NCBI GenBank assembly: GCA_051294905.1
Contig: CM119373.1
Coordinates: 1,428,001-1,492,000 of the forward strand
Direction: 5' to 3'
Origin: Botryllus schlosseri
Taxonomy: Eukaryota
Length of the DNA: 64,000 nucleotides
Positions 9,017-36,967 of the stretch are shown here, one piece after another. Position numbers and translations under genes: made by a program. Position 1 is the first letter of the stretch. Every line of letters begins with the position of its first letter. The notes under the pieces were generated by a model, which saw only the letters and a program-made list of their open reading frames with translations, did no database searches and was not told the DNA's origin.

Positions 9017-9350
9017 GTATTGATTCTCATATCGTTATCTATACCCTTGTAGAAGTATATATTCACCTTATCCTAATTAGCAATATCTGCATCCAATCAT
9101 TGGCGGTGTCACAACCGATTCACACCAAGAAAATCACCGATTCAATGTTTAATTATAGATAACTAACATACGGATGGATGAGGGGCTCAGTCATTACACT
9201 TGAATAGGCCCAGACCTAATGATGAGTCGGCTAAAACCAGCATTATTGGTAGCCGCATACTTGGCGATACGAACCCTGAAATGCAATAAAACTAGTTTTC
9301 ACTGAAAGCTAGTGTCAGTAGTTAGTATGATCGGTCGTGAGGTGCGTGGG

Positions 9351-9600
9351 GCTCTTATGGCGGGGTGGTGAGCGGCTGGAAAACCGGGGGTGGTGAGCGG
9401 CTCCTTATACCTTATGGCGGGGTGGTGAGCGGCTATTGTGTCTTATGGCGGGGGTGGTGAGCGGCTCTTATTTCTTATGGCGGGGGTCGTGAGCGGCTGG
9501 AAAACCGGGGGTGGTGAGCGGCTTTTATGTCTTATGGCGGTGGTCGTGAGCGGCTATTGTGTCTTATGGCGGGGCGACATGCGGCTATTGTGTCTTATGG
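9351..9600 (+). repeat. GC-rich subterminal tandem repeats of element 1 (mirror at ~22536-22785)
   Basis: Repeated CTTATGGCGGGGTGGTGAGCGGCT / GGAAAACCGGGGGTGGTGAGCGG units. Confidence 0.9.
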
Positions 9601-12600
9601 ATGCGGGATAGCTCGCACGCGGCTTCGTTGTTGGCATGTCGTACTTCGTGTTGAATATGTATCAAGTAAATAGTCATGTGATTGGTCCTTAGGTAATGTG
9701 TATATTCCAAATTACGGCGAGTACGACAATGATATATCGTTATTCTTATGGGCACGGCGATGATTCGTACTTTCGTTTATAGACTGCGGGTGGCATGTCG
9801 TACTTTCAGCAAAAAAGGTGTGAAATAGTTTGCTAAGTCTAGGAATCACTTGCAAGGTAATGTTTGGGTAATTAGATTACCACAGAGCCGGCGTAGACGG
9901 CAATTCGAATATCAACAATAACCACGCTCACAAACTAACAGTTCAAAAATGTGTGAAATAGTTTGCAAAACTCCGCGATCGCCCACAAGATAATGTCTCG
10001 GACATAACCATCTTTAGTGACTTGGTGTTACAGGCATATCGATCACTCACGCGGTGAAATTTTCGTAAGCAGTTTGGCACAGAGCTTGATTTCACTCGTA
10101 AGATTTAATAAGTAACGAATAACAGACCGCCAGTGTCGGTAACTTGAATAGCGACAAATTGTCACTTATTTCCGCTCTAACCCTAATCCTTTGTGAAGTG
10201 AACGCTTATTCAAAAGGGTGTGATATAATTTTAAAATCCGACGACCACTCACCGGATAATGCTTCAGACGCTCACAAGGTAATATTTCGGTAATTAGTTT
10301 GTCCCAGAACCGTCGCAGGCGGTGATTCGAAAACCAACAATTTGTCACTCGCCCGCGATCGCTATATGTTTCACACCTCCAGAATAGTGGCTGACTTTAG
10401 TTGCGTGATAAGATCCATGAAAATATTCAATCAATGTGTTAGTTTGTCAACTTGAAATGAAACTCACTACACAAATCAAGTCGATTCGTATCTGAATGTT
10501 TTAAATCGGTACAACTCTAATCCTTTGACAAATCCCTTAACGCGTTTTTGTTGAATCGACCGTAACCCGAATATTACTGACGCCGACTTTCAGCCGCATC
10601 GAATTATTCGCACATTCCGCACCACTGTTTCACACTTATAGAATCAATACAAGAATCAAGAATCACAAGTATGTGCATTACACAGTTATTGTCTTTATTA
10701 ACTTGAAATCAAACACTTAACAAAAACACGCAACTAATCATTTGGCAACTCTAGCATTACCAAAAAATTCCAGTATTGTTGATTGGAAATCCTTGAGTCA
10801 TTATTATCAAAAATGTTATAGTACCGCATCGGAATCCATTCGCGGGATGTACTAAAGGTAAATCCAGATAATCCAAAATGAAATATTTGGACTTTGACAA
10901 ACATGACTACCAACTTTGATCCAGTCACATTTCAAGATCATACTTTGAAACAATCCTTGAAACTTACAACTCTATTCACGACTGAGTTTTCCGTTTATCA
11001 AATAGAGTTTCAGCAAATACTATCGCGATATTTTAATGTGTTACTACACACAATAGAATCAATCAATGAAATAGCACCTGTTGTAAATATTTCTAACTTG
11101 ACAACCACGATCGACTTGTGACGCGATGAGTTAAATCGGAATATTTCAATCTATTTGTCGAAACCTTGAACAAACTATCAGGTTATTTTTTGTTGCAATC
11201 GAGTGAACGGAAATAGTATTACGTCTCAACATTTCAACATCTTCCCATACACAAAAGAGTAAAATACAAAAAACCTTGTCAAGTCAATCCGTTTGTAACT
11301 TACCCAACCAAAACAAAAAGTATCCTTACGAAAAGTAGACAAGACTACGCAAGTAATCACTACAACCAACAAACATATCAAGTTCGGTTTTAGGCATATA
11401 CCACCAACTCGTCTTATTGGAATGTCAGCAACTCTTTACGGTCGTAGTTACAACCACATAAACTAATTTACCCTGCCCACACGTCATGATCATTCCTGAA
11501 ATCAACACAAACTCGACCACTGACTTGAGTTAACCACAAAACGGCATCAAGTTTTTAATCCACGTATAGCTGACAGATTATTCGAATACATCGATGGAGA
11601 ATATTATTGAACTCGTCGGTATTGTTACTTCAACAAATTACACCGACTGCGAAAGTTAATATGGAATGGTAAGACTTGATCACATATTTGTTGAACACAG
11701 ACATGACAAAGAACATGATCGGGATTTTATAAACTAGTCATATTACTTTTCACATCTATCAATATCAGAATACAAGTCATCAAACTTTTTGTTAAATGTA
11801 ACATAGCACTTTTGGAATCGGATTCGTTATAGTCGTACAAATTGTATTAAACCCAACATCAAAACAAAAGGACTTTTTTAGTTCATTGAAATCAAACCAT
11901 TCGTCTTCGACTTGTGCTTTTTTAGATTGCCCGCGACAATTCGTTTCGAGTGAGTTGTAACCAAAGTCAAGATATCTTTGTGTCCACAGATATGGAAGAT
12001 GAATATAGCTAACACAATCACGAATCGACGTTTCAGAGTATTTCACGGATGTAATAAACTTGTTAGTGTCACCTATCTAAAAGTACGCACGCGTTCGATT
12101 TCCATACCGACTGTTGCGATGTTTAGGATTCACTTACAATAACCACGGGTGAGGATTTAACATCAACGTCGTTACTGGTGGTATTCACAACAGAGAATCG
12201 AAACATTACACAGTGTGAAAATATATCTTTGATATCAAAGCATTATCCCAAGTATACGATTAATAGTCAACTCCGTTCACACTTTCTATAGAACGTGCTA
12301 AATGTAAAATATCAGGAGGTTGCACTCTAAGACTTTGATCATTACAAAAGTAAATTGGAATATGTTTGCTGGATGCATTCAATTCAGCTAGAAATGTCTA
12401 GTGCACAACAATCGTAATATCAAGGAAGTACTTGCTATCACTAAACGTGTTTTGTATCGTTGTTCATTTGTAGTATTTATTGAAATTGTTTTTGAACACT
12501 CAAATAATAATTCCCGACATGAAACCAAGCCGCTGAAAGTCGTTACCATAACAAAGAAACAATTTGTACGATGTTTGGCAAATGTACCCTATAGTTAGGT

Positions 12601-14289
12601 GTACTAGAATTATTTGTGTAACACATACACCGACAATGCAATCGAAATTTTTTCCGTTGTCATTCGCTAAAGTAAATGTCATCACAATACTCTGTCACTA
12701 AAAGACGTTACTCGGACGTGCTTGAATTCTAGGCATAGTTCTGATTTACCCAACACAAGACCCAAGGACAACCCTAGTTTCAGTCGAACACAGATATCCA
12801 AAATATCGCACACTTCGCTATTCCTAAAGCGCAAACAGCCGATATAAAATATTACTGGTTGTGTTGTTGCGGCATCATCTTCACAATATCACCCTCAATA
12901 CAAATGATGTTTATGTGTAAAATGCTATTGATTTGAATCACACCCACCTGACGGAAGAGGATTTACTCAATCTTTACAAAATGGATATTGACCAACATCA
13001 CATCGCCGGATTGTATCTGTTTTGCTGGATACGAGTTATGTTAGTTTAACAGTAAACAAATTTCACCCTCTTGGATTATGAACTCAATGCGTTAGCAGTC
13101 ATTCAATATTTTGTTTGTGTCAACTAATAGTTACGTTGTATGATACGACTGATGACCCCCGCGACTTTTCAGACCCCAATATGAAAGATATTTACATCAC
13201 ACGAAATACTCCACTCGACATTCTCACACTACGAAACTAAAGAATGGTTGGTTAGACTATACAAACTGTTTTGGTATCACAAGAACTTTTTTTACACGAA
13301 TGGTCACGCATCTAAATATTCAAATAATCCAACAGACAATTATAATACTTACAGAAATATCATAGTTCTTGTAACAAAGTTGTATGTGTACAATGTTTAT
13401 CGTAAGTCCTACACATTCATGATATCCGACCGAGTTTGACTTTTAGAAAACATTATACCGACATCGCGACATCTTTCAAAATCAAAACCATGGTCACTGC
13501 TTGAGATACCTACCATGTCATCACAGTAATCCAGTTACTTCCACAAAAGATTATGTATTCGACTTACGTTCCACAAATCTAACGCGCAAAACAATTTACT
13601 TTGCTAACGAAAAGTGCTTAGTCATCATATGGTTGTCCTCACAACAATGCAACTAAAACATACTATCATACAAAATGGTGGTTATAGTTTGCACACCAAC
13701 GGTACATCGTACAAGTAACAAGTCTCGAGAATCTGTTAATTGAAAAAAAACGTGAAAGTGTTTCTCTTGCGCCAAGTCGTTATGTTGACGAAAGCGTATA
13801 TTGTGATATCACGATCAATTTGCATTCGTTGGTCACAAACTGTCACTACTCTAAATAATTCTTTTTCACTCAAACACAAAAGCATACTTGTCACCATTCG
13901 TTTTCATCAAACACGAGTTCAAGAAACTTACTTACCACGACATGAATTGTTATTTTTATGTTGAGTAAATAGGTAATAATTAATTCAAGTAACACTATAT
14001 CAACATCATCGAGCTGTGCGAATAGATTTACAGGTGGTCTTGTGGTTTTAATCGAAGCATACAGCATGGTCTAATGTAGACTCTTCTCTCTTGTACAGCA
14101 ACTCGCTAATCGAAATGCATGCATTCACATTTGAACAACGATCTTGTTTCGTCGCACCAAAAATATGTTCACTGTCACAATACTCTGCACATAACGTGCA
14201 AATCCTTTTCACCCTCGTAATAGTATACCAACGACCACCGACGACAACGTTTAACAATACCAACGACACTGGAAACACTGAACCCACGA

Positions 14290-15140
14290 CACTTACCCAA
14301 GTAAAAATACATTTTCCTTTGGCTACATGACGCTCACCAGAGTAAAAAATATCATTATCACCTGGAGATCCACCGTTACCCGAACAACAAAACCATTTTC
14401 CTTTGGAGATCTATCGTTTACCCAGTGTAACAATACATTTTCACATGGTGATCCATCGTTTACCCTGAGCAACAAACCTTTTTCACTTGGAAATATATTT
14501 TTTCCCTGGGTAACAAACCTTTTTCACTTGGAAATATATTTTTTCCCTGAGTTACAAACCATTTTCACTTGGAAATATATTTTTTCCCTGAGCAACAAAC
14601 CCTTTTCACTTGGAAGTATATTTTTTCCTGGAGCAACAAACGTTTTTCCACTTGGAAATATATTTTTCCCTGAGTAACAACCCCTTTTCACTTGGAAATA
14701 TATTTTTACCCTGGATAACAAACCCCTTTTCACTTGGAAATCTATTTTTGCCCTGGATAACAAACCATTTTCACTGAGTACCAATACCGTTTTCACTTGG
14801 AAATATATTTTTTCTCTTGGTAACAAACCTTTTTCACTTGGAAATATACTTTTTCTCTGGTTAACAAACCTTTTTCCCTGAGAAACAAACAATTTTCACT
14901 TGGTGGTCCATCGTTTACCCGAGTAAAAATATCATTTTCTTTTGGAGATCCGGCGTTTACCCAGTGTAACAATACATTTTCACTTGGAAAAATACTTTTA
15001 CCTAGAGTAACTAATCATTTTCTCCTGGGTAACAAATCCTTTTCATCTGGAAACTATCATTTACCTGAGTACCAATACCGTTTTCACTTGGAAATCTATC
15101 TTCTCCTTGGGTAACAATATCATTTTCGTTTTGAAAACTG
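14290..15140 (+). repeat. ~40-bp minisatellite in element 1 (mirror at ~16996-17846)
   Basis: About 20 units of TTTTCACTTGGAAATATATTTTTTCCCTGAGTAACAAACC. Confidence 0.92.
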
Positions 15141-18100
15141 ATAACCACACCGGCCAATTTGATATTTTTGTATATTGTTACAACGGGCAGTGACAAAATA
15201 TACACCAACAACGGCTCCGGTACATCTGTCTAATCAAATATTCACTTGCTCTGATGCATCCCATCAAAATCATCGGTTACTCACATACAATAACAATGAG
15301 CTGTTGTACATCGACATGTATGTTTTCGGAATTGGTGAATAAAGAGGTTTCCGATATGTCCGTGATGTCCGGGTTCGTGCTTTGGATTTTCCAGAGTCAA
15401 AATGTCTGAATAAAACACCTCCTCGACTTTGGTAACTGGTTGATACACGGATAATGGCGTTTGGAAAACGGATGAATTTATGTTCCCCATCGCGCTAACA
15501 ACTCCGAGTTACTTGTGAGTTTCCTCAGGTCTGTTTACTATATTGTGTCTTTACTGATCAATACATGTCGCTCCAGTCAGCTGAAACCGGATCACTAATA
15601 TGAGAAAGTGTGCGGGGGCCTGATCCGGATATTCACTCATGAACCAACGAGCAATATTCAAGTAAACATGCTACAGACCGTGTTTTGTCTCCATGAAAAA
15701 TACCAATGCATACACCACCACATACAAGTAACGTCACGATTGTTCACAAGTATTCGCGTAAACGAGGTATACATACAATGTGTCGGTGTACAAACATCAT
15801 GGAAAACAAATTCATGTTCTCAAGTCTCATCATGCGACGACTCTGTACATTCAATGTGGGTATAGATGACACACGGCATGATACAACGGACAGTGCGTTA
15901 TGCATACCGATATATTCTCAGTCAAATATGCGAACCATACACAACCATATACCCCGATTTTCGCTGAATATCCACAACACCAACAAATCTGTACATTTCT
16001 TTTCCCTCAACCTTGACGATAGAGTTGACCTCCCAATGTACCAATCGAGTGTATGGTTCATCAGGTGTAAAATCCAAATCAAATGTCACCAAGGTATCGT
16101 TTTTCATTTTTAATATTTCCACTGCCGCATCTTGTCTGTGTCGTAAAACCACGGCGTGGGGCCAGAGGAATCTATGGACAGTTACGCGTAGTCCCATATT
16201 TACTCGTGGATATGGTTAGGTTATGACGACGTTTTCTCAATGGTCTGTGTGGGTGCACCGTTTCAATACGTAGCTGGATCAACTAGATCAAAAGTTTCCA
16301 ACCGTGTTTTATAACGACCTGTAGAATTACGAGATAGCACCCTCTTGCGGTGTGATTAACACGAAATAAACCTTCAACTCGCAGAGACACACCTTGGATT
16401 ACATTATCTAATCGTAATCGAACTCGAGATTCACACACACACACAGAGTCCCTGTTTACGATTTCAATCCGGAGTCACTGCTCACGATGTTTATCTGTAG
16501 TCCGGATCCGGATCAGGCCCCCGCACACTTTCTCATATTAGTGATCCGGTTTCAGCTGACTGGAGCGACATGTATTGATCAGTAAAGACACAATATAGTA
16601 AACAGACCTGAGGAAACTCACAAGTAACCCGGAGTTGTTAGCGCGATGGGGAACATAAATTCATCCGTTTTCCAAACGCCATTATCCGTCTATCAACCAG
16701 TTACCAAAGTCGAGGAGGTGTTTTATTCAGACATTTTGACTCTGGAAAATCCAAAGCACGAACCCGGACATCACGGACATATCGGAAACCTCTTTATTCA
16801 CCAATTCCGAAAACATACATGTCGATGTACAACAGCTCATTGTTATTGTATGTGAGTAACCGATGATTTTGATGGGATGCATCAGAGCAAGTGAATATTT
16901 GATTAGACAAATGTACCGGAGCCGTTGTTGGTGTATATTTTGTCACTGCCCGTTGTAACAATATACAAAAATATCAAATTGGCCGGTGTGGTTATCAGTT
17001 TTCAAAACGAAAATGATATTGTTACCCAAGGAGAAGATAGATTTCCAAGTGAAAATGGTATTGGTACTCAGGTAAATGATAGTTTCCAGATGAAAAGGGT
17101 TTGTTACCCAGGAGAAAATGATTAGTTACTCTAGGTAAAAGTATTTTTCCAAGTGAAAATGTATTGTTACACTGGGTAAACGCCGGATCTCCAAAAGAAA
17201 ATGATATTTTTACTCGGGTAAACGATGGACCACCAAGTGAAAATGGTTTGTTTCTCAGGGAAAAAGGTTTGTTAACCAGAGAAAAAGTATATTTCCAAGT
17301 GAAAAAGGTTTGTTACCAAGAGAAAAAATATATTTCCAAGTGAAAACGGTATTGGTACTCAGTGAAAATGGTTTGTTATCCAGGGCAAAAATAGATTTCC
17401 AAGTGAAAAGGGGTTTGTTATCCAGGGTAAAAATATATTTCCAAGTGAAAAGGGGTTGTTACTCAGGGAAAAATATAGTTCCAAGTGGAAAAAGGTTTGT
17501 TGCTCCAGGAAAAAATATACTTCCAAGTGAAAAGGGTTTGTTGCTCAGGGAAAAAATATATTTCCAAGTGAAAATGGTTTGTAACTCAGGGAAAAAATAT
17601 ATTTCCAAGTGAAAAAGGTTTGTTACCCAGGGAAAAAATATATTTCCAAGTGAAAAAGGTTTGTTGCTCAGGGTAAACGATGGATCACCATGTGAAAATG
17701 TATTGTTACACTGGGTAAACGATAGATCTCCAAAGGAAAATGGTTTTGTTGTTCGGGTAACGGTGGATCTCCAGGTGATAATGATATTTTTTACTCTGGT
17801 GAGCGTCATGTAGCCAAAGGAAAATGTATTTTTACTTGGGTAAGTGTCGTGGGTTCAGTGTTTCCAGTGTCGTTGGTATTGTTAAACGTTGTCGTCGGTG
17901 GTCGTTGGTATACTATTACGAGGGTGAAAAGGATTTGCACGTCTTGTGCAGAGTATTGTGACAGTGAACATATTTTTGGTGCGACGAAACAAGATCGTTG
18001 TTCAAATGTGAATGCATGCATTTCGATTAGCGAGTTGCTGTACAAGAGAGAAGAGTCTACATTAGACCATGCTGTATGCTTCGATTAAAACCACAAGACC

Positions 18101-21100
18101 ACCTGTAAATCTATTCGCACAGCTCGATGATGTTGATATAGTGTTACTTGAATTAATTATTACCTATTTACTCAACATAAAAATAACAATTCATGTCCTG
18201 GTAAGTAAGTTTCTTGAACTCGTGTTTGATGAAAACGAATGGTGACAAGTATGCTTTTGTGTTTGAGTGAAAAAGAATTATTTAGAGTAGTGACAGTTTG
18301 TGACCAACGAATGCAAATTGATCGTGATATCACAATATACGATTTCGTCAACATAACGACTTGGCGCAAGAGAAACACTTTCACGTTTTTTTTCAATTAA
18401 CAGATTCTCGAGACTTGTTACTTGCACGATGTACCGTTGGTGTGCAAACTATAACCACCATTTTGTATGATAGTATGTTTTAGTTGCATTGTTGTGAGGA
18501 CAACCATATGATGACTAAGCACTTTTCGTTAGCAAAGTAAATTGTTTTGCGCGTTAGATTTGTGGAACGTAAGTCGAATACATGATCTTTTGTGGAAGTA
18601 ACTGGATTACTGTGATGACATGGTAGGTATCTCAAGCAGTGACCATGGTTTTGATTTTGAAAGATGTCGCGATGTCGGTATAATGTTTTCTAAAAGTCAA
18701 ACTCGGTCGGATATCATGAATGTGTAGGACTTACGATAAACATTGTACACATACAAATTTGTTACAAGAACTATGATATTTCTGTAAGTATTATAATTGT
18801 CTGTTGGATTATTTGAATATTTAGATGCGTGACCATTCGTGTAAAAAAAGTTCTTGTGATACCAAAACAGTTTGTATAGTCTAACCAACCATTCTTTAGT
18901 TTCGTAGAGTGAGAATGTCGAGTGGAGTATTTCGTGTGATGTAAATATCTTTCATATTGGGGTCTGAAAAAGTCGCGGGGGTCATCAGTCGTATCATACA
19001 ACGTAACTATTAGTTGACACAAACAAAATATTGAATGACTGCTAACGCATTGAGTTCATAATCCAAGAGGGTGAAATTTGTTTACTGTTAAACTAACATA
19101 ACTCGTATCCTGCAAAACAGATACAATCCGGCGATGTGATGTTGGTCAATATCCATTTTGTAAAGATTGAGTAAATCCTCTTCCGTCAGGTGGGTGTGAT
19201 TCAAATCAATAGCATTTTACACATAAACATCATTTGTATTGAGGGTGATATTGTGAAGATGATGCCGCAACAACACAACCAGTAATATTTTATATCGGCT
19301 GTTTGCGCTTTAGGAATAGCGAAGTGTGCGATATTTTGGATATCTGTGTTCGACTGAAACTAGGGTTGTCCTTGGGTCTTGTGTTGGGTAAATCAGAACT
19401 ATGCCTAGAATTCAAGCACGTCCGAGTAACGTCTTTTAGTGACAGAGTATTGTGATGACATTTACTTTAGCGAATGACAACGGAAAAAATTTCGATTGCA
19501 TTGTCGGTGTATGTGTTACACAAATAATTCTAGTACACCTAACTATAGGGTACATTTGCCAAACATCGTACAAATTGTTTCTTTGTTATGGTAACGACTT
19601 TCAGCGGCTTGGTTTCATGTCGGGAATTATTATTTGAGTGTTCAAAAACAATTTCAATCAATACTACAAATGAACAACGATACAAAACACGTTTAGTGAT
19701 AGCAAGTACTTCCTTGATATTACGATTGTTGTGCACTAGACATTTCTAGCTGAATTGAATGCATCCAGCAAACATATTCCAATTTACTTTTGTAATGATC
19801 AAAGTCTTAGAGTGCAACCTCGTGATATTTTACATTTAGCACGTTCTATAGAAAGTGTGAACGGAGTTGACTATTAATCGTATACTTGGGATAATGCTTT
19901 GATATCAAAGATATATTTTCACACTGTGTAATGTTTCGATTCTCTGTTGTGAATACCACCAGTAACGACGTTGATGTTAAATCCTCACCCGTGGTTATTG
20001 TAAGTGAATCCTAAACATCGCAACAGTCGGTATGGAAATCGAACGCGTGCGTACTTTTAGATAGGTGACACTAACAAGTTTATTACATCCGTGAAATACT
20101 CTGAAACGTCGATTCGTGATTGTGTTAGCTATATTCATCTTCCATATCTGTGGACACAAAGATATCTTGACTTTGGTTACAACTCACTCGAAACGAATTG
20201 TCGCGGGCAATCTAAAAAAGCACAAGTCGAAGACGAATGGTTTGATTTCAATGAACTAAAAAAGTCCTTTTGTTTTGATGTTGGGTTTAATACAATTTGT
20301 ACGACTATAACGAATCCGATTCCAAAAGTGCTATGTTACATTTAACAAAAAGTTTGATGACTTGTATTCTGATATTGATAGATGTGAAAAGTAATATGAC
20401 TAGTTTATAAAATCCCGATCATGTTCTTTGTCATGTCTGTGTTCAACAAATATGTGATCAAGTCTTACCATTCCATATTAACTTTCGCAGTCGGTGTAAT
20501 TTGTTGAAGTAACAATACCGACGAGTTCAATAATATTCTCCATCGATGTATTCGAATAATCTGTCAGCTATACGTGGATTAAAAACTTGATGCCGTTTTG
20601 TGGTTAACTCAAGTCAGTGGTCGAGTTTGTGTTGATTTCAGGAATGATCATGACGTGTGGGCAGGGTAAATTAGTTTATGTGGTTGTAACTACGACCGTA
20701 AAGAGTTGCTGACATTCCAATAAGACGAGTTGGTGGTATATGCCTAAAACCGAACTTGATATGTTTGTTGGTTGTAGTGATTACTTGCGTAGTCTTGTCT
20801 ACTTTTCGTAAGGATACTTTTTGTTTTGGTTGGGTAAGTTACAAACGGATTGACTTGACAAGGTTTTTTGTATTTTACTCTTTTGTGTATGGGAAGATGT
20901 TGAAATGTTGAGACGTAATACTATTTCCGTTCACTCGATTGCAACAAAAAATAACATGATAGTTTGTTCAAGGTTTCGACAAATAGATTGAAATATTCCG
21001 ATTTAACTCATCGCGTCACAAGTCGATCGTGGTTGTCAAGTTAGAAATATTTACAACAGGTGCTATTTCATTGATTGATTCTATTGTGTGTAGTAAGACA

Positions 21101-23553
21101 TTAAAATATCGCGATAGTATTTGCTGAAACTCTATTTGATAAACGGAAAACTCAGTCGTGAATAGAGTTGTAATTTTCAAGGATTGTTTCAAAGTATGAT
21201 CTTGAAATGTGACTGGATCAAAGTTGGTAGTCATGTTTGTCAAAGTCCAAATATTTCATTTTGGATTATCTGGATTTACCTTTAGTACATCCCGCGAATG
21301 GATTCCGATGCGGTACTATAACATTTTTGATAATAATGACTCAAGGATTTCCAATCAACAATACTGGAATTTTTTGGTAATGCTAGAGTTGCCAAATGAT
21401 TAGTTGCGTGTTTTTGTTAAGTGTTTGATTTCAAGTTAATAAAGACAATAACTGTGTAATGCACATACTTGTGATTCTTGATTCTTGTATTGATTCTATA
21501 AGTGTGAAACAGTGGTGCGGAATGTGCGAATAATTCGATGCGGCTGAAAGTCGGCGTCAGTAATATTCGGGTTACGGTCGATTCAACAAAAACGCGTTAA
21601 GGGATTTGTCAAAGGATTAGAGTTGTACCGATTTAAAACATTCAGATACGAATCGACTTGATTTGTGTAGTGAGTTTCATTTCAAGTTGACAAACTAACA
21701 CATTGATTGAATATTTTCATGGATCTTATCACGCAACTAAAGTCAGCCACTATTCTGGAGGTGTGAAACATATAGCGATCGCGGGCGAGTGACAAATTGT
21801 TGGTTTTCGAATCACCGCCTGCGACGGTTCTGGGACAAACTAATTACCGAATATTACCTTGTGAGCGTCTGAAGCATTATCCGGTGAGTGGTCGTCGGAT
21901 TTTAAAATTATATCACACCCCTTTGAATAAGCGTTCACTTCACAAAGGATAAGGGTTGGAGCGGAAATAAGTGACAATTTGTCGCTATTCAAGTTACCGA
22001 CACTGGCGGTCTGTTATTCGTTACTTATTAAATCTTACGAGTGAAATCAAGCTCTGTGCCAAACTGCTTACGAAAATTTCACCGCGTGAGTGATCGATAT
22101 GCCTGTAACACCAAGTCACTAAAGATGGTTATGTCCGAGACATTATCTTGTGGGCGATCGCGGAGTTTTGCAAACTATTTCACACATTTTTGAAGTGTTA
22201 GTTTGTGAGCGTGGTTATTGTTGATATTCGAATTGCCGTCTACGCCGGCTCTGTGGTAATCTAATTACCCAAACATTACCTTGCAAGTGATTCCTAGACT
22301 TAGCAAACTATTTCACACCTTTTTTGCTGAAAGTACGACATGCCACCCGCAGTCTATAAACGAAAGTACGAATCATCGCCGTGCCCATAAGAATAACGAT
22401 ATATCATTGTCGTACTCGCCGTAATTTGGAATATACACATTACCTAAGGACCAATCACATGACTATTTACTTGATACATATTCAACACGAAGTACGACAT
22501 GCCAACAACGAAGCCGCGTGCGAGCTATCCCGCATCCATAAGACACAATAGCCGCATGTCGCCCCGCCATAAGACACAATAGCCGCTCACGACCACCGCC
22601 ATAAGACATAAAAGCCGCTCACCACCCCCGGTTTTCCAGCCGCTCACGACCCCCGCCATAAGAAATAAGAGCCGCTCACCACCCCCGCCATAAGACACAA
22701 TAGCCGCTCACCACCCCGCCATAAGGTATAAGGAGCCGCTCACCACCCCCGGTTTTCCAGCCGCTCACCACCCCGCCATAAGAGCCCCACGCACCTCACG
22801 ACCGATCATACTAACTACTAGTGTCGCGCTCTTTACGAAAATACAAATTAAAATGTGGTCAGGGCAATGGAACAACTCCCAAGTAGCCGTAAAACTCGAT
22901 TCATCTGAACAATTGGAGCGCAGTATGACAATGAACAAGAAAATGGCTGATTCCATCGCGCGATTTTCTGACTTTGACGGCAATTTCAGGGGGATTCCAT
23001 TTCCCTGGCCAGATTTCAATCTCCATTTTTGTAATCAGTGCGACCCTAGCTTTCGATTAAGACCAGTTATATCACATTTGAGCGTTCGAATCTCCCAGAT
23101 ATAGGAATAACAATTATGCTGCAACTCCCACCGTGAAACATCGAAATATCAATCAACTGTAACCCCACCAACAAAAATTGGCGACGTCATAGTGGCACGA
23201 AATCGACGTTCAGCACATAGCATCTGTCCTGGTCGGTATATACTCCCGTGTCACAAAGTGATGTGATGTAATAAACCCCTGGCTATTAAGATATACACTC
23301 GGTCATCGAGAATCAACATTGCATGACTAGTCGTGATACATTCTGATTCGAAGGAATGTAGACCTTCATAATAAAACGTTTGTCTCCTTTGTTAGCTACA
23401 ATTCTACGGGATTGATATGTCCGATGTAAATGCAGAAGTTTTGAAGAATGAAATTTTTTCTCCGTAGTTATTGCGATCATTCCTCAATAGATAACAATTC
23501 ACAATATGAAAATGTATTTGAATGTAACATGAATCTTGCTATTCCTTATTATA

Positions 23554-23899: not shown

Positions 23900-26800
23900 T
23901 TATTATATAGTTTCGGCTTTGTAATTCATATGCATTGCATATGCATACCAATAAATAGAGAAGAGCTTTCGCGGACTGTTTCCTATAAAGTAACAATTGA
24001 TCCTATTTCTCCACAACTAAATTCCATTGGTCCAACATTTTTATTTGTCCATATTGTTATCAGGACAATCAGTGACAATAAATTGCGTGGAGCGTGAAGA
24101 AAAAATCCCAATGTGAATGAATTTTCCTGGAAATATACTCTACTTTATGCAGATGTGCGCAGTAACGTCGAACCTAATTCGTGTTTTTGCTATCAATGAG
24201 GCAATTAAGTAGTAGGATGGGATTCGTTTGTTACCGTCCAATCACAGAAGGCCACGTCGCCTTAATTGCCACGCCTACATTGCCACATCATCCGCCCATT
24301 TATTTAGAATGTAAACACTCTCATAATATAATTTGCGTCGGACTATGCCTGGTTTATGATGTCATCACAGAGGAATTAGGCGACTGCAATGCTTTGTGAA
24401 TTTCAATACCGATTTTCCATGTGTATTTAGCAATATGTATTGAATACCTTTGCGATTTTGAGCGCTGCGACTTGATAATATCAATCCCTACGCTTCTGAT
24501 GTATGATTTTTTTTTGTGTTAAGGACCTTGGTAACATTCAGAGTCTGCAACGATTGTTTGGATATACATTATAGCAATACCCCACCAAACTATAGGCGGT
24601 TATATTACTCTATTGGCCAGAGATAACTCATCCGTCCATATTTTTAAACTTGATTTTATGTATACAAGTTACGGTCTCTGCAGCCTCAACATTTTACGAC
24701 TTATTTTCATTAGACGCAGGCAAGCGGTTCTCCAGTTCGGAGCTACGAAAACAAGTCACTTGCATGTGCGCGTTCCGAATAGTCTTGTAGAATTTTCTAA
24801 AGCCGTAACAGCTAAGTAGCATATACGCGAATCCCAAGGCGAAAATAATCGAACAATAATTTTCTAAAGTCGTAACAGCTCAGTAGCATATACGCGAATC
24901 CCAAGCGAAAATAATCGAACGAACTATAGCCGCAGGCGTGCGATTCGCGGGACTTTAATTATACAAACACTTCCGATGCCTGTACGTGAACCCCGGCGTT
25001 ATAACGATTAGATCTAATTAGCGCGTTCTGAAGCCGTAAATTTAGTCAACATCATTGAGATAACCCTGATTTAAAGATGATGATCGAGTGTGACAATAGC
25101 ACTCGTCAAGGTTATACTAACATACCCTTAAACTACTCTCTACTTCACAAAATATAAAGTTAACGATTCCTAACTCGCAGTTACGAAGCAAAAGTCGATA
25201 TTGCTTTGTGATGATTTTGATGTTGTTCCATACCGATTGGGAAGATAGCACACCTAATTTCGTAACTAACTACATAATCCCTAGTAACGTAGTAAGACGC
25301 ATAACGGAATTTACGCAAAATCGGTATTGCTCTGCGATAATTTTGATCACTATGTTTTGATAATGACTTGCTTCCAAGAAATAAATCACATTCATTATAC
25401 GTTAGATGATACTTTTCCTTGATATTCTATCATGTGTATTTAGGACTAATGCGACATCACTATGTTTACGGCAGGTCTGATTTGAACACACTAATTTTGC
25501 GTATCACACCACAAACTGCGAGAGCCTTCAAAGTTGATAAGTAAACAAGTATTTGCACTCCATCATAATACTAAAGTAGCTTTTCGCGTATTTGTACCTA
25601 ATACTAAAGTGTTTATGATTTCAAATTGCTTCAACTTCATGACATTTTCAGTATTAAACAGAAATATAGACCTAGAATACTAACTTTTATTCGTAAATAG
25701 CTACTTCCTATACCTTAATTTAATGGATTTATCTGAGATCATTCCTTTACTTAATCTCTCCAAAATGTGCATTATACAAGTACGTCACCATCGAAACCCT
25801 CTCGCTATAACTATCTGGCAGTATAATTGCATTTAAGACATTATGGCAATGTACCATGTCAAATTTTGTTACGCATTTCATGATTAAACAACTTTAAAAC
25901 CAACGTAGTTCTATACCGACATTTGCGTGAATCTGTTTTGCGGGAGCGTAGCACATACCTATGCGTAGTCAACTTTAATGGCGGAATTACAGATGCAATT
26001 AAGTTTCAACACTTTTACAACGATTCTTGCTTCCTATAACTTCCCACTCGAGGCCCTCGTTATTAGACTATGATCTCAGCCTGAGCTATGTCTTGAAGCC
26101 TACGGGACTCTGCTAATTGTTTCGATTTATTCTGCCCGTTTTAATTTAAGACAAGGAAGCCCATTTCACTCAATGTATCGATGCCTACGGTACTCTACAA
26201 AATTTCTTGAATAATTCTCCCTATGTTAATTTACGATAAGAAAGACAATTTGACTCCTGAAGTCCGAAATACTTGTTCGCTTGAGCTCAGCCGCAGCGCC
26301 TGGAGTGGAATTTTATAGTTCTTGTAAAAAGTTGTTTGTGCACAATATATGTTTAAGGTAGGTCCTACGCATTCATGATTTAGTCCGAGTTTGTATTTTA
26401 GTACTACAATTTTATCGCGGAGCGCAACAAGATAAATCGTATGAATTTGTAAACTACTTATTCATGACATAGTAATAATTCTACTTGTGTACTTTTTCAT
26501 ATTTTGCAGCAATTTTAGTAGTACTTAAATAAAATTCGGAATATAAACTAATCGAAAAATTCGGTAACCAATTTCGCATAGGCTATGCATACAAATGAGG
26601 AAAGTTACATCAACGCGTGTTAACTAATTGAATTATGTAGCTTGTAATTCATGCAAGTTTCGAAACTTCTACACTGAATCCTTTAAAGTAGATAGAATCG
26701 AAAAAACTAATCGAAAATATTCACGAAGTTTGGATGCGACATATTTGGGTTTTTTAAAATCATTCATACCCATGATTCGAAATACTTTAACTAACTTATG

Positions 26801-27379
26801 TTTTCGACATAAGATAAGCGTGAAATGTACAAATTTCTATGTTGCGCAAATACCACAAACTTTGCTTGCTTTCAGACCCGGCAACTAAATGCAAGACAGA
26901 ATTTACGCAAAAGTTGCTATTCTGAAAATTTTGTCAAGGTAATAGTTTAAAAGTTTACACTTGAGCACTACGAAATGTTCAAGTACTTTATCTTTACACG
27001 ACGTTTTTTGTAAAATGAATACCAATATTATTGAAAAAATAAAAAATAAAAAGAGCGAATAATTACATTTTATCCCGGAACGCAACAAGAAAAATCGTAT
27101 GAATTTGTAAACTAATAAACATTAATAATTCTACTTGTACACTTTTCCACACTTTATAACACTTTAAGTAGTACTTAACAGTTTCAGTTTTAAATAAAAT
27201 ACGGAATATAAACTAATCGAAAAATTCGGTTACCAATTTCGCGTAGGCAATGCATACAAATGAGGAAAGTTACATCAACGCGTGTTAACTAGTTGTATCG
27301 AGTTATCGAATGACTTTTTTTTCTTTACATCAAAATAACTAGAGTGTGTAACTACATTAAAAACGTATCTAAATGAGCT

Positions 27380-28540
27380 CCAGGTCATTGTGATTATGCA
27401 GCATACCAAATTTCATCACACATTTCATGATGGAACAACTTTAAAACTAACGCAGTTCTATAGCAACTTTTGCCTAAATCTGTTTTCGGTAGCATGTACA
27501 TATCCATAGTCAGCTTTAATAACAGAATTACCATGCTAATATGTGACTCCTCACCTTGAAACTTGGTACGTAGTTGTAGGACATTGTGATTATGCAGCAT
27601 ACCAAATTTCTTCACGCATTTCATAATGGAACAACTTTAAAACTAACGCGGCTCTACATCGACTTTTTGCGTACATCTGTTTTGCGGGAGCGTATAGCAC
27701 GTACCTATACATAGTCAACTTTAATAACGGAATTACCATGCTTAACATTGAATCCCAACTCTAAACTTGATTCGTAGTTGTAGGACATTGTGGCAATGCA
27801 CCATGCTAAATTTCATCGCACATCTAATGATGGATCACCTTTAAAACTAATGCAGTCGAATACCGACTTTTAAGCATATCTGTTTTGCGTGAACATAGCA
27901 TATACCTATGCATAGTCAATTTTAATAGCAGAATTACCGTGTTAAACATTGAATTCCCACCTTGAAAGTTGGTACGCGATTATAGGACACTATAACGATG
28001 CACCATACCAAATCCCATCACACATTTCATGATGGAACAACTTTAAAACTAACGCGGCTCTACATCGACTTTTTGCGTATATCTGTTTTGCGGGGGCGTA
28101 TAGCACGTACTCATACATAGCTAACTTTAATAACGGAATTACCATGCTTAACATTGAATCCCAACTCTAAACTTGATACGTAGTTGTAGGACATTATGGC
28201 AATGAACCATGCTAAATTTCATCACATATCTAATGATGGAACACCTTTGAAACTATCGCAGTCGAATACCGACTTTTACACATATCTGTTTTTCGTGAAC
28301 ATAGCATATACCCATACATAGTCAATTTTAATAACAGAATTAGCATGCTAAACCTTAAATTCTCACCTTGAACGTTGGTACCCAGTTGTAGGACATAATA
28401 ACAATGCACCATACCAAATTTCGTCAGGCATTTCATGATGTAACACTTTCAAAACCAACGCAGTTCTATACAGGCTTTTGGCTAAATCTGTTTTTCCGTA
28501 GCGTAGCACGTACCTATACATAGTCAACTTTAATATCAAT
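27380..28540 (+). repeat. ~203-bp satellite (alternating units, ~406-bp dimer) in element 2; mirrored at ~36330-40170 with an extra dimer
   Basis: Recurring ggacattgtg..gca..atac/atgc..aaattt units near 27382, 27580, 27783, 27986, 28189 and 28391. Confidence 0.85.
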
Positions 28541-31500
28541 ACATGTTTATCGTAAGTCCTACACAGTCATGATATCCGGCCGAGTTTGACTTTTAGAAAA
28601 CATTATACCGACATCGCGACATCTTACAAAATTGAAACCGCGGTGACTGCTTGAGAGACCTACCAGTGATATCGCGGTAATCTAGTTACTTCCACAAAAT
28701 AGTATGTATTCAACTTACTTTCCACAAATCTAACGCGCAAAACAATTTACTTTGCTAACGAAAAGTGCTGAGTCATCATATCATTATCCACCCAACAATA
28801 CACCTAAAACATACTATCGTACAAAATGGTCGCTAACCTCTTTGTGCACCAGCTGTAAATCTCACAAGCAACAAGTTTCAAGATTCCAGTTATTGAAAAA
28901 ATGTTAAAGTGTTTCTCCTGCGCCAAGTCGTTATGTTGACGAAAGCGTATATTGTAATATCATGATCGATTTGCATTCGTTGGTCACAAACTGTCACTAC
29001 TCTAAATAATTATTTTTCACTCAAACACAACAGCATACTTGTCGCCATTCGTTTGCATCAAGCACGAGTTCAATAAACTTACTTAATACGACATGAATTG
29101 GTATTTTTATGTTGTGTAAATAGGTAATAATTAATTTTAGTAACACTATACCAACATCATCGAGTTGTGCGAATAGATTTACATGTGGTGTTATGGTTTT
29201 AATCGAAGTACACTGCACGATCTAATGTAGAGTCATCTCTATTGTATAGCAACTCGGTAATCGAAATGCATGCATTAACATTTAAACAGCGATCGTGTTT
29301 CGTCACGCGAAAAATACGTTCACTACCGCGATACTCTGCACAGGGCGTGCAAATCCTTTTCACACTCGTAATAGTATACCAACGGCTACCTGCGACAACG
29401 TTTAACAATACCAACGACACTAAACATACGATACCTACCCAATCTGCAAATTGTTTCGATTTATTCTGTCCGTTTCAATTTAAGATAAGGAAGCCCATTT
29501 CACTCAATGTATCGATGCCTACGGTACTCTACAAAATTTTCTGATTAATTCTCCCTATGCTTATTTATCACAAGAAAGATGATTTGACACCTAAAGTACG
29601 AAATACTTTTACGCTTGAGCTAAGCCGCAGCGCCTGAAGTGGAATTTTACGGGGTATGTGGACTCATTTCGTAGGGCTCTATGCCATAGGAGCATACTTT
29701 ACGCTCCAATTCGATTCCCACACATTCCATATAATTACTAACAGAACCATTGAGTACCAGCCTTGACATTTTCCGTAGTACTAGATGGCATGTATACAAT
29801 TTCACGACATCCGACATTACGACGAAGACTATCAAAATATCGAAAGAAGCCCTCTATTCTTTTCTGAAATAATCAAGGTTTTATCAGGACTTCCCTTCAT
29901 ATAAACTCCAGCAGAATCACTAATAACCTCTCAAGTGTACTCAATTTACTCTAATTTGATACTCGTGTACCAAATCCCTATTTTCCGCAAGTATGATAGA
30001 GGCTATCGCTCGATACTCAACGATTCGTAATTTTGCTGGAATACAAGTACAATTAGTTTAAAGTAGTTTGAGGTTACGTTTGTATCACCTTGACAAGTGC
30101 TATTATCAAAAAATGCTTTTGCTAAACTCTTACCCTTTCACTAAACTTCTACACGGAATCTTGTAAAGTAGATAGAAAAGGAAAACTATTAACATAAGGT
30201 ATGTGAGAAGCACGCAAATTTCGATTGCATACAAATGCCACAAACTGCGCTAACTTCCAGAGTTGTTAAGTATAGAAGTACTCGTACGTCTTGAGAATAC
30301 CCAAGTAGGTTTTTTGCCTACATGTACCAAATACTCTCTAGTCCTTATGATATTGGAGTACATCAACTTCATGATAGCTACAGTATTAAACAGAAATAGA
30401 CCTAGAGTACTAACGTTTTTGTGCAGTGAGAGTTCGCAAATTATCGAAGTATTTTTGTTATTTTTATTGCGATAAGTCATTCTGCAGCGCAAAAATGCGT
30501 CGTAGGATATAGATGAAACTAGCACCACTCATCAAGACCGCTGATAACAGTACATTTCAACATTTAGTTGCAGTAAATTTCGAGTAAAGTACAAGAAGTG
30601 ATGATTTCCGAGTGAGTTAAAAAGTAAGTATTGCAGGTATAGTTTACCTGAAAACCGAATACTCTGAAATAGAAGTAGATGCAGTGTAAATAGTTAATCA
30701 CTTGATTAAGTATAGCGAAAGCAGATAAAACCTATACTTGAGTACTACAAAATACACGAGTACTTCGCTATCGACTCCCTCCACGTAATAAGTGACTACG
30801 GTTTAAGACTGCTTTTACCGATACTCGTCAGTTTCCGTTTTAGATAGAATTCGGAAACCAAATAATTTCATAAACATAAGCTAATTAAATGAATTTACTC
30901 GAATGTACTATGCCGCGCTGATAAGATTAATTATAATATACTTATCATGTTAGAGCGATTTTTCTAGCGTAGAAAATCTTTAAAATGTAGTAAGCAGGCC
31001 AAAATGAAGATATTCGTTGAGCTGAATAAACATAAAAAATACTCTAGACTACTTTATCGGTACTTTACAGTTTCAGTTTTAGATAAAATTTGTCCATTTC
31101 ACTCCTCGCTATCTAAACATGTTTAGAATATATTATTTGCGATGATACGAACCCGTAAAGTACTCAAGTAGCTTTTCGTTGGATATAGATGAAACTGACA
31201 CCACTCACCAAGACCACTGGCCCACCGACAAAAAGTACATTTCAACATTTTAGTAACAGTAAAGTCCTACTAAAGTACAAGAAGTCATGATTTCCGAGTG
31301 AGTTAAAAAGTAAGTATTGAAGGTATAGTTTGCTCGAAAACCGAAAAACTCTGAAATAGAAGTAGATGCAGTGTAAATAGTCAATCACTTCATTTAGTAT
31401 AGCGCAAGCAGGCCAAACCTATACTTGAGTACTCCAAAATATACAAGTACTCCCTCCACGTAAAAAAGCGACTAGGGTTTAGACTACTTTATCGGTACTT

Positions 31501-34485
31501 GACAGTTTCAGTTTTAGATCAAATTTGGTGAGACTTTAAATTTTGAAGTAGTTTGAGCTTACGTTTGTATCACCTTGACAAGTATCATTATCAGACATGA
31601 AAATGATACTATCACCTAATACAGAAGTTAACACACGTCAATGTGCTTCGGAATTCACGAGAAATTGCTTACTAAGAGAAGTATATTCTTGTATACACAA
31701 TAGTGGAGAGAATCTTTAAAATGTAGTAAGCAGGTCGATGGGTATTCATTGAGTTGTATAAGCATAAAAAACATTCCCGCGCGCTCCTAAACCTAACACT
31801 TCCTACCCTACCACCTTATACTAAGACGCGCGCGGGAATGTTTTTTATGCTTATACAACTCAATGAATACCCATCGACCTGCTTACTACATTTTAAAGAT
31901 TCTCTCTACTATTATGTATACAAGAATATACTTCTCTTAGTAAGCAATTTCTCGTGAATTCCGAAGCACATTGACGTGTGTTAACTTCTGTATTAGGTGA
32001 TATTATCATTTTCATGTCTGATAATGATACTTGTCAAGGTGATACAAACGTAAGCTCAAACTACTTTAAAATTTAAAGTCTCACCAAATTTGATCTAAAA
32101 CTGAAACTGTCAAGTACCGATAAAGTAGTCTAAACCCTAGTCGCTTTTTACGTGGAGGGAGTACTTGTATATTTTGGAGTACTCAAGTATAGGTTTGGCC
32201 TGCTTGCGCTATACTAAATGAAGTGATTGACTATTTACACTGCATCTACTTCTATTTCAGAGTTTTTCGGTTTTCGAGCAAACTATACCTTCAATACTTA
32301 CTTTTTAACTCACTCGGAAATCATGACTTCTTGTACTTTAGTAGGACTTTACTGTTACTAAAATGTTGAAATGTACTTTTTGTCGGTGGGCCAGTGGTCT
32401 TGGTGAGTGGTGTCAGTTTCATCTATATCCAACGAAAAGCTACTTGAGTACTTTACGGGTTCGTATCATCGCAAATAATATATTCTAAACATGTTTAGAT
32501 AGCGAGGAGTGAAATGGACAAATTTTATCTAAAACTGAAACTGTAAAGTACCGATAAAGTAGTCTAGAGTATTTTTTATGTTTATTCAGCTCAACGAATA
32601 TCTTCATATTGGCCTGCTTACTACATTTTAAAGATTTTCTACGCTAGAAAAATCGCTCTAACATGATAAGTATATTATAATTAATCTTATCAGCGCGGCA
32701 TAGTACATTCGAGTAAATTCATTTAATTAGCTTATGTTTATGAAATTATTTGGTTTCCGAATTCTATCTAAAACGGAAACTGACGAGTATCGGTAAAAGC
32801 AGTCTTAAACCGTAGTCACTTATTACGTGGAGGGAGTCGATAGCGAACTACTCGTGTATTTTGTAGTACTCAAGTATAGGTTTTATCTGCTTGCGCTATA
32901 CTTAATCAAGTGATTAACTATTTACACTGCATCTACTTCTATTTCAGAGTATTCGGTTTTCAGGTAAACTATACCTGCAATACTTACTTTTTAACTCACT
33001 CGGAAATCATCACTTCTTGTACTTTACTCGAAATTTACTGCAACTAAATGTTGAAATGTACTGTCATCAGCGGTCTTGATGAGTGGTGCTAGTTTCATCT
33101 ATATCCTTCGACGCATTTTTGCGCTGCAGAATGACTTATCGCAATAAAAATAACAAAAATACTTCGATAATTTGCGAACTCTCACTGCACAAAAACGTTA
33201 GTACTCTAGGTCTATTTCTGTTTAATACTGTAGCTATCATGAAGTTGATGTACTCCAATATCATAAGGACTAGAGAGTATTTGGTACATGTAGGCAAAAA
33301 ACCTACTTGGGTATTCTCAAGACGTACGAGTACTTCTATACTTAACAACTCTGGAAGTTAGCGCAGTTTGTGGAATTTGTATGCAATCGAAATTTGCGTG
33401 CTTCTCACATACCTTATGTTAATAGTTTTCCTTTTCTATCTACTTTACAAGATTCAGTGTAGAAGTTTAGTGAAAGTGTAAGAGTTTAGCAAAAGCATTT
33501 TTTGATAATAGCACTTGTCAAGGTGATACAAACGTAACCTCAAACTACTTTAAACTAATTGTACTTGTATTCCAGCAAAATTACGAATCGTTGAGTATCG
33601 AGCGATAGCCTCTATCATACTTGCGGAAAATAGGGATTTGGTACACGAGTATCAAATTAGAGTAAATTGAGTACACTTGAGAGGTTATTAGTGATTCTGC
33701 TGGAGTTTATATGAAGGGAAGTCCTGATAAAACCTTGATTATTTCAGAAAAGAATAGAGGGCTTCTTTCGATATTTTGATAGTCTTCGTCGTAATGTCGG
33801 ATGTCGTGAAATTGTATACATGCCATCTAGTACTACGGAAAATGTCAAGGCTGGTACTCAATGGTTCTGTTAGTAATTATATGGAATGTGTGGGAATCGA
33901 ATTGGAGCGTAAAGTATGCTCCTATGGCATAGAGCCCTACGAAATGAGTCCACATACCCCGTAAAATTCCACTCCAGGCGCTGCGGCTTAGCTCAAGCGT
34001 AAAAGTATTTCGTACTTTAGGTGTCAAATCATCTTTTTTGTGATAAATAAGCATAGGGAGAATTAATCAGAAAATTACCGTAGGCATCGATACATTGAGT
34101 GAAATGGGCTTCCTTATCTTAAATTGAAACGGACAGAATAAATCGAAACAATTTGCAGATTGGGTAGGTATCGTATGTTTAGTGTCGTTGGTATTGTTAA
34201 ACGTTGTCGCAGGTAGCCGTTGGTATACTATTACGAGTGTGAAAAGGATTTGCACGCCCTGTGCAGAGTATCGCGGTAGTGAACGTATTTTTCGCGTGAC
34301 GAAACACGATCGCTGTTTAAATGTTAATGCATGCATTTCGATTACCGAGTTGCTATACAATAGAGATGACTCTACATTAGATCGTGCAGTGTACTTCGAT
34401 TAAAACCATAACACCACATGTAAATCTATTCGCACAACTCGATGATGTTGGTATAGTGTTACTAAAATTAATTATTACCTATTTA

Positions 34486-35750
34486 CAGAGGTGGTCAAAG
34501 TAGTCAAGAAAACTACTCAAGTAGAAGTAGAAGTAGCGACGAAAAAATCTACTCAAGTACGAGTAGAAGTACTTTTTCAATAAGCCCCCTAAAACTACTT
34601 GAAGTAGAAGTAAAATTGACTGACGTTAAATCTACTTTTAAGTAAGTAAGTAGTTTTGAAAACAGTCATAATTCGTACGCATGGACTGTCAAAAGCTGCG
34701 AATTCAGCTATGCTGTAGGTGCAGAGAGCTTGATTCGTATTGATGCATTCCAGGAGGTATCAATTTTCGACAGCATAAGCATTGTTTCGCGCCATGGGAT
34801 GAAAATTATAGTATTGATATGAGAATGCAATACTAACCCTTTGTTTACTAGAAGACCCCGTTAGATATGGCACCCCACCCCATATTATAAGGCCCAAGTT
34901 CAGGCGAAGAGCAATACGTAGAAGTTGTATCGGATACGGTTTCATCACTTTTCGCGATTAGGAAATAACAAATATTGTGCATCGTAAAAGTTATATTTAG
35001 TGTATACCTTTTATTTCGGAAAATAGAGGCATTGCTACACTTGCTTTTAAGGTTCAACATGTTTGTTCTGCAGACAAAAGAACTGAAAATAATTAGAACT
35101 CAAAGTATGATACTCGCAATTGAAAGTGAAACACAAATACCACTTTTAAACAGCAGAAAATATATTTCATGTAATTTGTCCATAAAGCTTCAAAGGTGAT
35201 CTTCTGAAACAGGTGTAGCGTTAAACAGCTGGATATTCGAGATTAGCAAGACACGTAATGTGCTGCTAGATTACGATGTGATTGGTAACTGCTAGATTGC
35301 GAATCGGTAGTTTCAAACGTCATGATGGGCCATATTTACTGTGATGAAATATTTAATATGGGCGACAATGAGGTGTGAGAGGAACCAAGCAATCCGGTAC
35401 CTGAATTATATTCACTGATACTTTCATGAAAACATATTTGTCATTCCACCACTACTATGCGCGAATCACAACAAAATTATAGGATTTACTTGACTTTTAT
35501 GAAAATTGAATGTTGATACTCCGTGAAAACAGCCCCGAAATTCCTCAGGCTATCTTTCACATTAGGGGTAATAAACTACTTCTACTTGACAAACTGAAAA
35601 TAGCGAAAAGTAAGTAAGTAGATCACAAAATTTTACGAAGTAGAAGTAAAAGTAGAGAAAATCAGATCTACTTGAGTAAGTATCAGAAGTAGAGGAAAAC
35701 TACTTGAGTACTTCCAAAAAGTAGAAGTACTTCGTTACTGACCACCTCTG
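34486..35750. mobile_element. hAT (Tol2-like) MITE, in the right arm of element 2 only
   Basis: TIRs cagaggtggtca / tgaccacctctg; TSD cctattta; tactcaagta/agtagaagta subterminal repeats; empty site at 29117-29124. Confidence 0.93.
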
Positions 35751-36967
35751 CCTATTTACACAACATAAAAATACCAATTCATGTCGTAGTAAGTAAGTTT
35801 ATTGAACTCGTGCTTGATGAAAACGAATGGCGACAAGTATGCTGTTGTGTTTGAGTGAAAAATAATTATTTAGAGTAGTGACAGTTTGTGACCAACGAAT
35901 GCAAATCGATCATGATATTACAATATACGCTTTCGTCAACATAACGACTTGGCGCAGGAGAAACACTTTAACATTTTTTCAATAACTGGAATCTTGAAAC
36001 TTGTTGCTTGTGAGATTTACAGCTGGTGCACAAAGAGGTTAGCGACCATTTTGTACGATAGTATGTTTTAGGTGTATTGTTGGGTGGATAATGATATGAT
36101 GACTCAGTACTTTTCGTTAGCAAAGTAAATTGTTTTGCGCGTTAGATTTGTGGAAAGTAAGTTGAATACATACTATTTTGTGGAAGTAACTAGATTACCG
36201 CGATATCACTGGTAGGTCTCTCAAGCAGTCACCGCGGTTTCAATTTTGTAAGATGTCGCGATGTCGGTATAATGTTTTCTAAAAGTCAAACTCGGCCGGA
36301 TATCATGACTGTGTAGGACTTACGATAAACATGTATTGATATTAAAGTTGACTATGTATAGGTACGTGCTACGCTACGGAAAAACAGATTTAGCCAAAAG
36401 CCTGTATAGAACTGCGTTGGTTTTGAAAGTGTTACATCATGAAATGCCTGACGAAATTTGGTATGGTGCATTGTTATTATGTCCTACAACTGGGTACCAA
36501 CGTTCAAGGTGAGAATTTAAGGTTTAGCATGCTAATTCTGTTATTAAAATTGACTATGTATGGGTATATGCTATGTTCACGAAAAACAGATATGTGTAAA
36601 AGTCGGTATTCGACTGCGATAGTTTCAAAGGTGTTCCATCATTAGATATGTGATGAAATTTAGCATGGTTCATTGCCATAATGTCCTACAACTACGTATC
36701 AAGTTTAGAGTTGGGATTCAATGTTAAGCATGGTAATTCCGTTATTAAAGTTAGCTATGTATGAGTACGTGCTATACGCCCCCGCAAAACAGATATACGC
36801 AAAAAGTCGATGTAGAGCCGCGTTAGTTTTAAAGTTGTTCCATCATGAAATGTGTGATGGGATTTGGTATGGTGCATCGTTATAGTGTCCTATAATCGCG
36901 TACCAACTTTCAAGGTGGGAATTCAATGTTTAACACGGTAATTCTGCTATTAAAATTGACTATGCAT

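Follow-up and report, generated by a model that had tools for sequence, protein, structure and literature searches.

Self-complementary motifs at the arm ends of two palindromic Polinton-ended elements: a probable secondary junction in one and a probable primary fold-back in the other

The DNA polymerase of phi29 and the PolB of Polintons belong to the same protein-primed class, and phi29 has palindromic subgenomic DNAs. To our knowledge, template switching by a Polinton-type polymerase has been the subject of little direct study. Polinton/Maverick traits were reportedly described by Kapitonov and Jurka in 2006, in a publication that may also cover non-autonomous Polintons with long terminal inverted repeats (TIRs). 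The template-switch mechanism as such is known from other systems. In phi29 strand displacement, a displaced 3' end can prime again where 2-21 bp are complementary, and inversions with deletion result (PMC1855051). In yeast, the inversion junctions attributed to ODIRA lie at interrupted repeats of 2-14 bp that are 40-80 bp apart (PMC10766183), and where the spacing is wide, one arm is taken to have suffered a secondary deletion (PMC10766183; PMC10766186). The Maverick signature consists of (AGT)2//(ACT)2 ends and a 6-bp target duplication (PMC8097293). Full-text searches, which returned mostly listings and the starts of abstracts and covered few subscription papers, found no paper on the junction motifs of palindromic Polinton derivatives, and the accessible part of PMC6431247 makes no mention of such palindromes.

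The DNA analysed here is a stretch of 64 kb (the window) with two palindromic elements that share with Polintons/Mavericks the (AGT)2//(ACT)2 ends, the 6-bp target duplication and a size of 13-19 kb (PMC8097293; PMC6431247). Element 1 (9317..22819) is a palindromic non-autonomous Polinton/Maverick-ended element of 13,503 nt that begins with AGTAGT, ends with ACTACT and is flanked by an exact 6-bp target duplication, AGTGTC (9311-9316 and 22820-22825). Its left arm (9317..15630, plus strand) is 6,314 nt long and its right arm (16506..22819, minus strand) is the reverse complement of the left; the alignment of the two contains 6,287 matches, 26 substitutions and 2 one-base gaps. Element 2 (24208..43337) is also a palindrome with AGTAGT...ACTACT ends but of another family, is flanked by the exact 6-bp target duplication CAATTA, and has arms that align with 7,509 matches and 41 mismatches. 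Later insertions with CAG-starting inverted ends, which we take to be hAT-like, are present in its right arm at 34488-35750 and about 36968-39225, each with an apparent 8-bp target duplication (CCTATTTA; CTATGCAT). As these insertions are confined to the right arm, the arms of element 2 were not homogenised after integration.

It is extremely unlikely that these palindromes are artefacts of assembly or amplification, such as a fold-back read or an MDA chimera. MDA does yield inversions with deletion at microhomology (PMC1855051), and the strand switch from 16505 to 15630 occurs in no contig listed from the public runs described below, which cover 15 nt of the right arm and show presence only. 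On the other hand, the arms of element 1 differ at 28 places, element 2 has arm-specific insertions, and both elements are flanked by exact 6-bp target duplications.

The vertebrate Polintons/Mavericks described in the accessible parts of the literature have TIRs of 46-1,447 bp and core genes (PMC8097293; PMC6431247), whereas the elements described here have arms of 6.3-7.6 kb and lack a recognisable core gene. The genes for PolB, integrase, ATPase, protease and capsid were looked for in element 1 and element 2, and none was detected in either. Of 59 stop-to-stop frames with a length of 62 aa or more, taken from the left arms, the spacers and the two insertions, not one reached the Pfam cut-off, and one sub-threshold match to DUF7499 was obtained; the longest frame in the two elements is 138 aa, and Rfam gave no match within the 64-kb window. 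Because the core genes are absent, neither element is an autonomous Polinton; the best interpretation is that they are helper-dependent palindromes with Polinton ends, from two families. Four scans of viral, metagenome and genome collections for homologues, by pattern and by protein, gave no confirmed match. Candidate loci from other collection scans (12, 1, 1 and 4) share at most a 16-27-nt seed with the window, as expected by chance, and were rejected.

By analogy, palindromic Polinton-ended elements would work like ODIRA or MDA switching, or like snap-back genomes. As in ODIRA, the junctions here lie at short inverted repeats, the 40-80 bp spacing corresponds to element 2, and a wide spacer that results from the secondary loss of one arm corresponds to element 1; in contrast to these mobile palindromes with target duplications, ODIRA concerns chromosomal fork errors that lead to triplications, and self-complementary junction words are not reported in the accessible text of those studies (PMC10766183; PMC10766186). 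The phi29 MDA chimeras resemble our elements in that displaced 3' ends re-prime at 2-21 bp, with inversion and deletion, but they are an in vitro artefact whose products do not integrate, and the paper makes no mention of palindromes (PMC1855051). In AAV snapback genomes, one end is likewise copied back on itself, in symmetric and asymmetric forms (PMC10924063). These defective genomes are transient by-products, while the elements described here are integrated, inherited and multicopy, and one has a conserved loop gene.

A preliminary description of this DNA proposed that the fold-back centres sit on short self-complementary motifs. The motifs and their coordinates were correctly given for both elements, and the inverted arms stop exactly at them. 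The left arm of element 1 ends internally with ATCCGGAT, an 8-bp palindrome at 15623..15630 that is internal read-through sequence in other copies. On the right side, the spacer motif copy abuts the arm copy to form the tandem 6-mer TCCGGATCCGGAT (16501..16513), which contains the second ATCCGGAT at 16506-16513; the tandem TCCGGA-TCCGGA makes a 12-bp palindrome at 16501-16512 that runs on into the spacer. A third copy of TCCGGA is located at 16468..16473, 33 nt before the junction, so that four of the eight TCCGGA sites in the window lie within 15624-16512. In element 2, the left arm ends with the CG tract CGCGCGC (31778..31784, including GCGCGC at 31779-31784), and the right arm starts with the 8-nt CG tract CGCGCGCG (31827..31834, including GCGCGC at 31828-31833), which extends one letter into the loop. 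The statement that both arms end at the motif is true, yet it is a single fact for each element: the right arm repeats the left in reverse complement, any palindrome at the end of one arm must also occur at the end of the other, and the independent observations number two rather than four.

To judge how unusual such ends are, random fold-backs were simulated (20,000 per template). The arm ended on a palindrome of 8 bp or longer in 0.8-0.9% of them and on one of 6 bp or longer in 2.2-2.6%. With the added requirement of an inverted microhomology that spans no fewer than 6-7 nt, the proportions were 0.7-4.7% and 3.7-6.5%, respectively. The joint chance for both elements is roughly 2 × 10−4 to 1 × 10−3, uncorrected for the after-the-fact choice of the pattern, and remains about 1 × 10−3 with microhomology required. 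The paired palindromic arm ends are somewhat unusual, with n = 2 and the cases chosen after the fact. As a general rule, the proposal was not confirmed. The palindromic junctions are two of the four examined, namely the two that prompted the claim, while the probable family arm end at 15870 and a strand-switch joint at 15414/15462 lack a palindrome; the latter was seen in a single contig with a depth of 3.94, has 3 letters that fit both sides, and has non-palindromic ends. The enrichment of such motifs at other centres is not borne out by these two further junctions, one of which is weak.

A programmed site would be another way to explain the pattern: short CpG palindromes would serve as binding or cleavage sites of a dimeric factor, or would stall the displacing polymerase, and arm ends and internal deletions would recur there. 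The joint chance of about 2 × 10−4 to 1 × 10−3 speaks for it, as do the clustering of half of the window's eight TCCGGA sites at the centre of element 1 and a weak hint of a hotspot, in that 15622, the position immediately preceding ATCCGGAT, is where two of the 14 joints listed for other contigs end. We nevertheless consider it quite unlikely, as the two elements use unrelated motifs, neither 15870 nor the joint at 15414/15462 is palindromic, and the joints at 15622, for which the intervening sequence is recorded as not known, might either mark where an alignment resumes at a conserved block or be plain direct-repeat deletions. The related idea that these satellites re-draw their arm/loop boundary in the course of strand-displacement replication, by preferential switching at short words that contain CpG and are self-complementary (TCCGGA, CG tracts) and that would be recognised as places to pause or switch, is similarly improbable. 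If it were true, the inherited copies would be a record of template switching by a eukaryotic protein-primed polymerase in vivo. The junction regions of element 1 fold no better than shuffled sequences (z from -0.4 to -1.2). The coincidence of the motifs is real but was over-read, and it probably reflects no dedicated signal for folding but short homology of the ordinary kind. By itself it is modest, with two cases and a counter-example.

The reading that we favour, and hold to be rather more probable than otherwise, is that element 1 has a secondary junction and element 2 a primary fold-back, with self-complementarity as a by-product. For the centre of element 1, this was assessed with contigs from four of the 24 listed public runs (X1, X6, X16 and X17, of which X1 may be the source sample and X6 carries another species label), which were aligned to 15150-16520 in 30 bins; all 30 bins were covered in all four runs. 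The preliminary description took each centre to be the founding fold-back of a non-palindromic parent at the motif, with the spacer as the original loop. In agreement with its expectation, arm and spacer are colinear with other copies, as contigs bridge 15630/15631 in all four runs (X1, X16, X17 and X6), and a second motif copy, TCCGG, is present at the right end of the spacer (16501-16505). The motif does not, on the other hand, appear to be the arm boundary of the family. In X6, one contig with a depth of 53 runs unbroken from 15463 to 15870, across 15630, and the next, with a depth of 27.6, starts at 15841; the resulting 30-nt overlap is what a branch in the graph typically produces. The depth of the loop contig is 24.7. 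Among the 24 loose contig ends listed out of 513, X6 and X17 show another continuation that departs at 15870, for which no convincing match was found within the 64-kb window.

The depth profiles were compared with the reservation that contig depth is no copy number and that contigs show presence only. The halving of depth expected at 15630 from a family arm boundary at the motif is absent in three of the four runs (X1, X16 and X17): the ratios of segment means across 15630 are 1.15, 0.97, 1.17 and 1.58 in X1, X16, X17 and X6, and those across 15870 are 1.92, 4.13, 2.53 and 1.27, so that in X6 the step in segment means is larger at 15630 than at 15870. Between 15861 and 15876, every one of the four runs shows a drop in per-site depth (81,092 to 13,536; 13,278 to 2,122; 97,498 to 5,116; 139.6 to 27.6), and the best change point is at bin 15886 in X16 and X17, at 16208 in X1 and at 16024 in X6. 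The last bin, which holds the right junction of element 1, drops to 0.17-0.44 of the preceding segment in all four runs, which may in part be an edge effect. In X6, the last two bins fit contigs that match to about 16502-16509 and then leave, and a full read-through at lower depth fits them too. In most copies of the family the arms probably reach about 15870, as deduced from short contigs. The sequence that ends there is not palindromic, and with the joints 15870 to 15880 (X6) and 15870 to 15898 (X16) that were seen, 15870 may merely be the start of a variable stretch. A depth peak of about three times the surroundings was also observed at 15380-15425 in all four runs and suggests a motif common to further families.

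If the precursor had longer arms, the first 240 nt of the apparent spacer (15631..15870, plus strand), covered by the X6 contig 15463-15870, are an orphaned inner arm that has probably lost its mirror partner, and the spacer is not the original loop. Judging by the contigs, the precursor already was a palindrome, and its arms extended to about 15870. The founding fold-back of the preliminary description is unlikely as a full model. It draws on the colinear left junction with the second motif copy at the right end of the element 1 spacer, on the size and lack of structure of the element 2 loop, which fit a primary hairpin, and on loop-gene contigs of 922-1,192 nt, which suggest a similar spacer size in relatives; it is contradicted by the X6 contig, unbranched at 15630, by the lack of depth halving there in X1, X16 and X17, by the branch and drop at 15870 together with the poor representation of the right junction in all four runs, and by the failure to find a parent among the viral, metagenome and genome collections scanned. 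The left and right parts of the element 1 spacer show no decayed inverted or direct similarity to each other (score 20, with 170 of 200 shuffles as good). Two 7-nt words within 16483-16500 correspond, with their order exchanged, to 15663-15669 and 15671-15677 read as reverse complements, either as a templated patch or by chance. A templated insertion in which 16494-16500 derives from the reverse complement of 15671-15677 (a 7-nt match found by eye) was set aside as near chance.

In the favoured reading, a secondary junction in element 1 and a primary fold-back in element 2, both elements would be copied by protein-primed strand displacement, and one arm would be re-templated from the other. 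The ATCCGGAT end of element 1 would be a later scar in an already palindromic precursor and not the founding fold-back. A nascent strand that has passed the loop gene would reach TCCGGA(T) at about 16501-16507 and re-prime on the displaced strand's copy at 15623-15629; a microhomology deletion in the right half could give the same product. In either case, the inner 240 nt of one arm and some of the loop would be lost, and a 6-nt tandem duplication would be left behind. The actual breakpoint of the rearrangement would then be the tandem motif on the right side (16501-16513). As regards the proposed template switching at a short inverted repeat, the inverted microhomology fits an established route (PMC1855051; PMC10766183), but a self-complementary word is not needed, since switching requires two inverted copies of a word, which are then absorbed into the arm. 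CG tracts and repeated palindromic words could base-pair with another copy whichever way it is oriented, giving duplexes that are short but strong in a sequence of 35-40% GC; palindromic CG-rich words may be over-used because pairing works in either orientation and strongly.

A formally identical product (motif, insert, motif) is predicted if a perfect palindrome were cut in a staggered manner at its hairpin tips and a foreign piece inserted, with duplication of the central 8 (or 6) bases. We regard such a break at the centre, followed by capture, as very unlikely. In element 1, other copies treat 15631-15870 as part of the arm, and they do not share the right junction throughout the family. 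In element 2, it could be invoked that an internal paralogue ceases to be similar some 11 nt short of the loop; the paralogue itself, however, looks chimeric at this point, and it is not possible to attribute the break to the centre of element 2.

The centre of element 2 agrees with the primary fold-back of the favoured reading. Its loop (31785..31827, plus strand) is 43 nt long, G-poor and nearly unstructured, with a minimum free energy of -0.2 kcal/mol, and on its two sides it has CG tracts, one of 7 nt and one of 8 nt. A CG tract forms an inverted repeat with every other CG tract, and these two, 43 nt apart, would have provided the short inverted repeat where the strand folded back; element 2 is probably a primary fold-back at these tracts. 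The loop size falls within the 40-80 bp that primary fold-backs in yeast prefer (PMC10766183). The centre had no other copy within the window and no match in the viral or genome collections.

The loop of element 1 contains an intact ORF of 91 aa (15922..16197, minus strand) that encodes a conserved, beta-rich protein without a known family. Four homologues with 66-93% identity were found on contigs of 922-1,075 nt, and the members of the protein cluster add contigs of 1,064, 1,192 and 2,005 nt. No Pfam family was assigned to the protein; its structure model has a pLDDT of 38 and leaves the fold unresolved, the Atlas matches reach at most 0.78, and the profile search recovered its own family and one repetitive 300-aa protein (E-value 2.8 × 10−4). 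Four of the nine variants listed inside the ORF are silent and five change a residue. Judged from its sequence, the loop appears to be a maintained module and not mere leftover DNA, since its ORF is intact and has homologues at 66-93% identity.

Variants in the arms of element 1 tell how the arms are related. Among the 40 variant rows listed out of 160, there are 12 arm sites, of which ten have the non-majority letter on both arms, two of these ten being alleles below 1% in X1, and the other two differ on the left arm only. Rare variants shared by both arms indicate that the arms were copied from each other during propagation. After insertion, the arms of element 1 drift apart.

If the arm/loop boundary does shift, the elements would keep rearranging their centres by microhomology while the small loop gene is retained, and a list of centres from the whole genome would be a natural data set for studying how a Polinton-type polymerase switches template. 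It would then also be unsafe to equate the place where the arm of any one copy ends with the point of origin of its family.

A number of further features were noted in the window. The gap between the elements (22820-24201) is only about 1.4 kb, so that members of two families are inserted side by side. The two otherwise unrelated elements have in common an 885-nt module with 88% identity (13393-14277 and 28543-29426), which in each adjoins a tandem array, of 41-bp units in element 1 and of 202/406-bp units in element 2. G-rich subterminal tandem repeats with units of 32/57 bp lie 40 nt inside the ends of element 1 (9353-9574 and 22536-22783) and are candidate origin-binding sites. Outside any palindrome, 48286-48690 is a 75%-identical fragment of the element 1 arm (11417-11804), and three near-identical (98.5%) direct-repeat copies of 0.7-1 kb are found at 580-3629.
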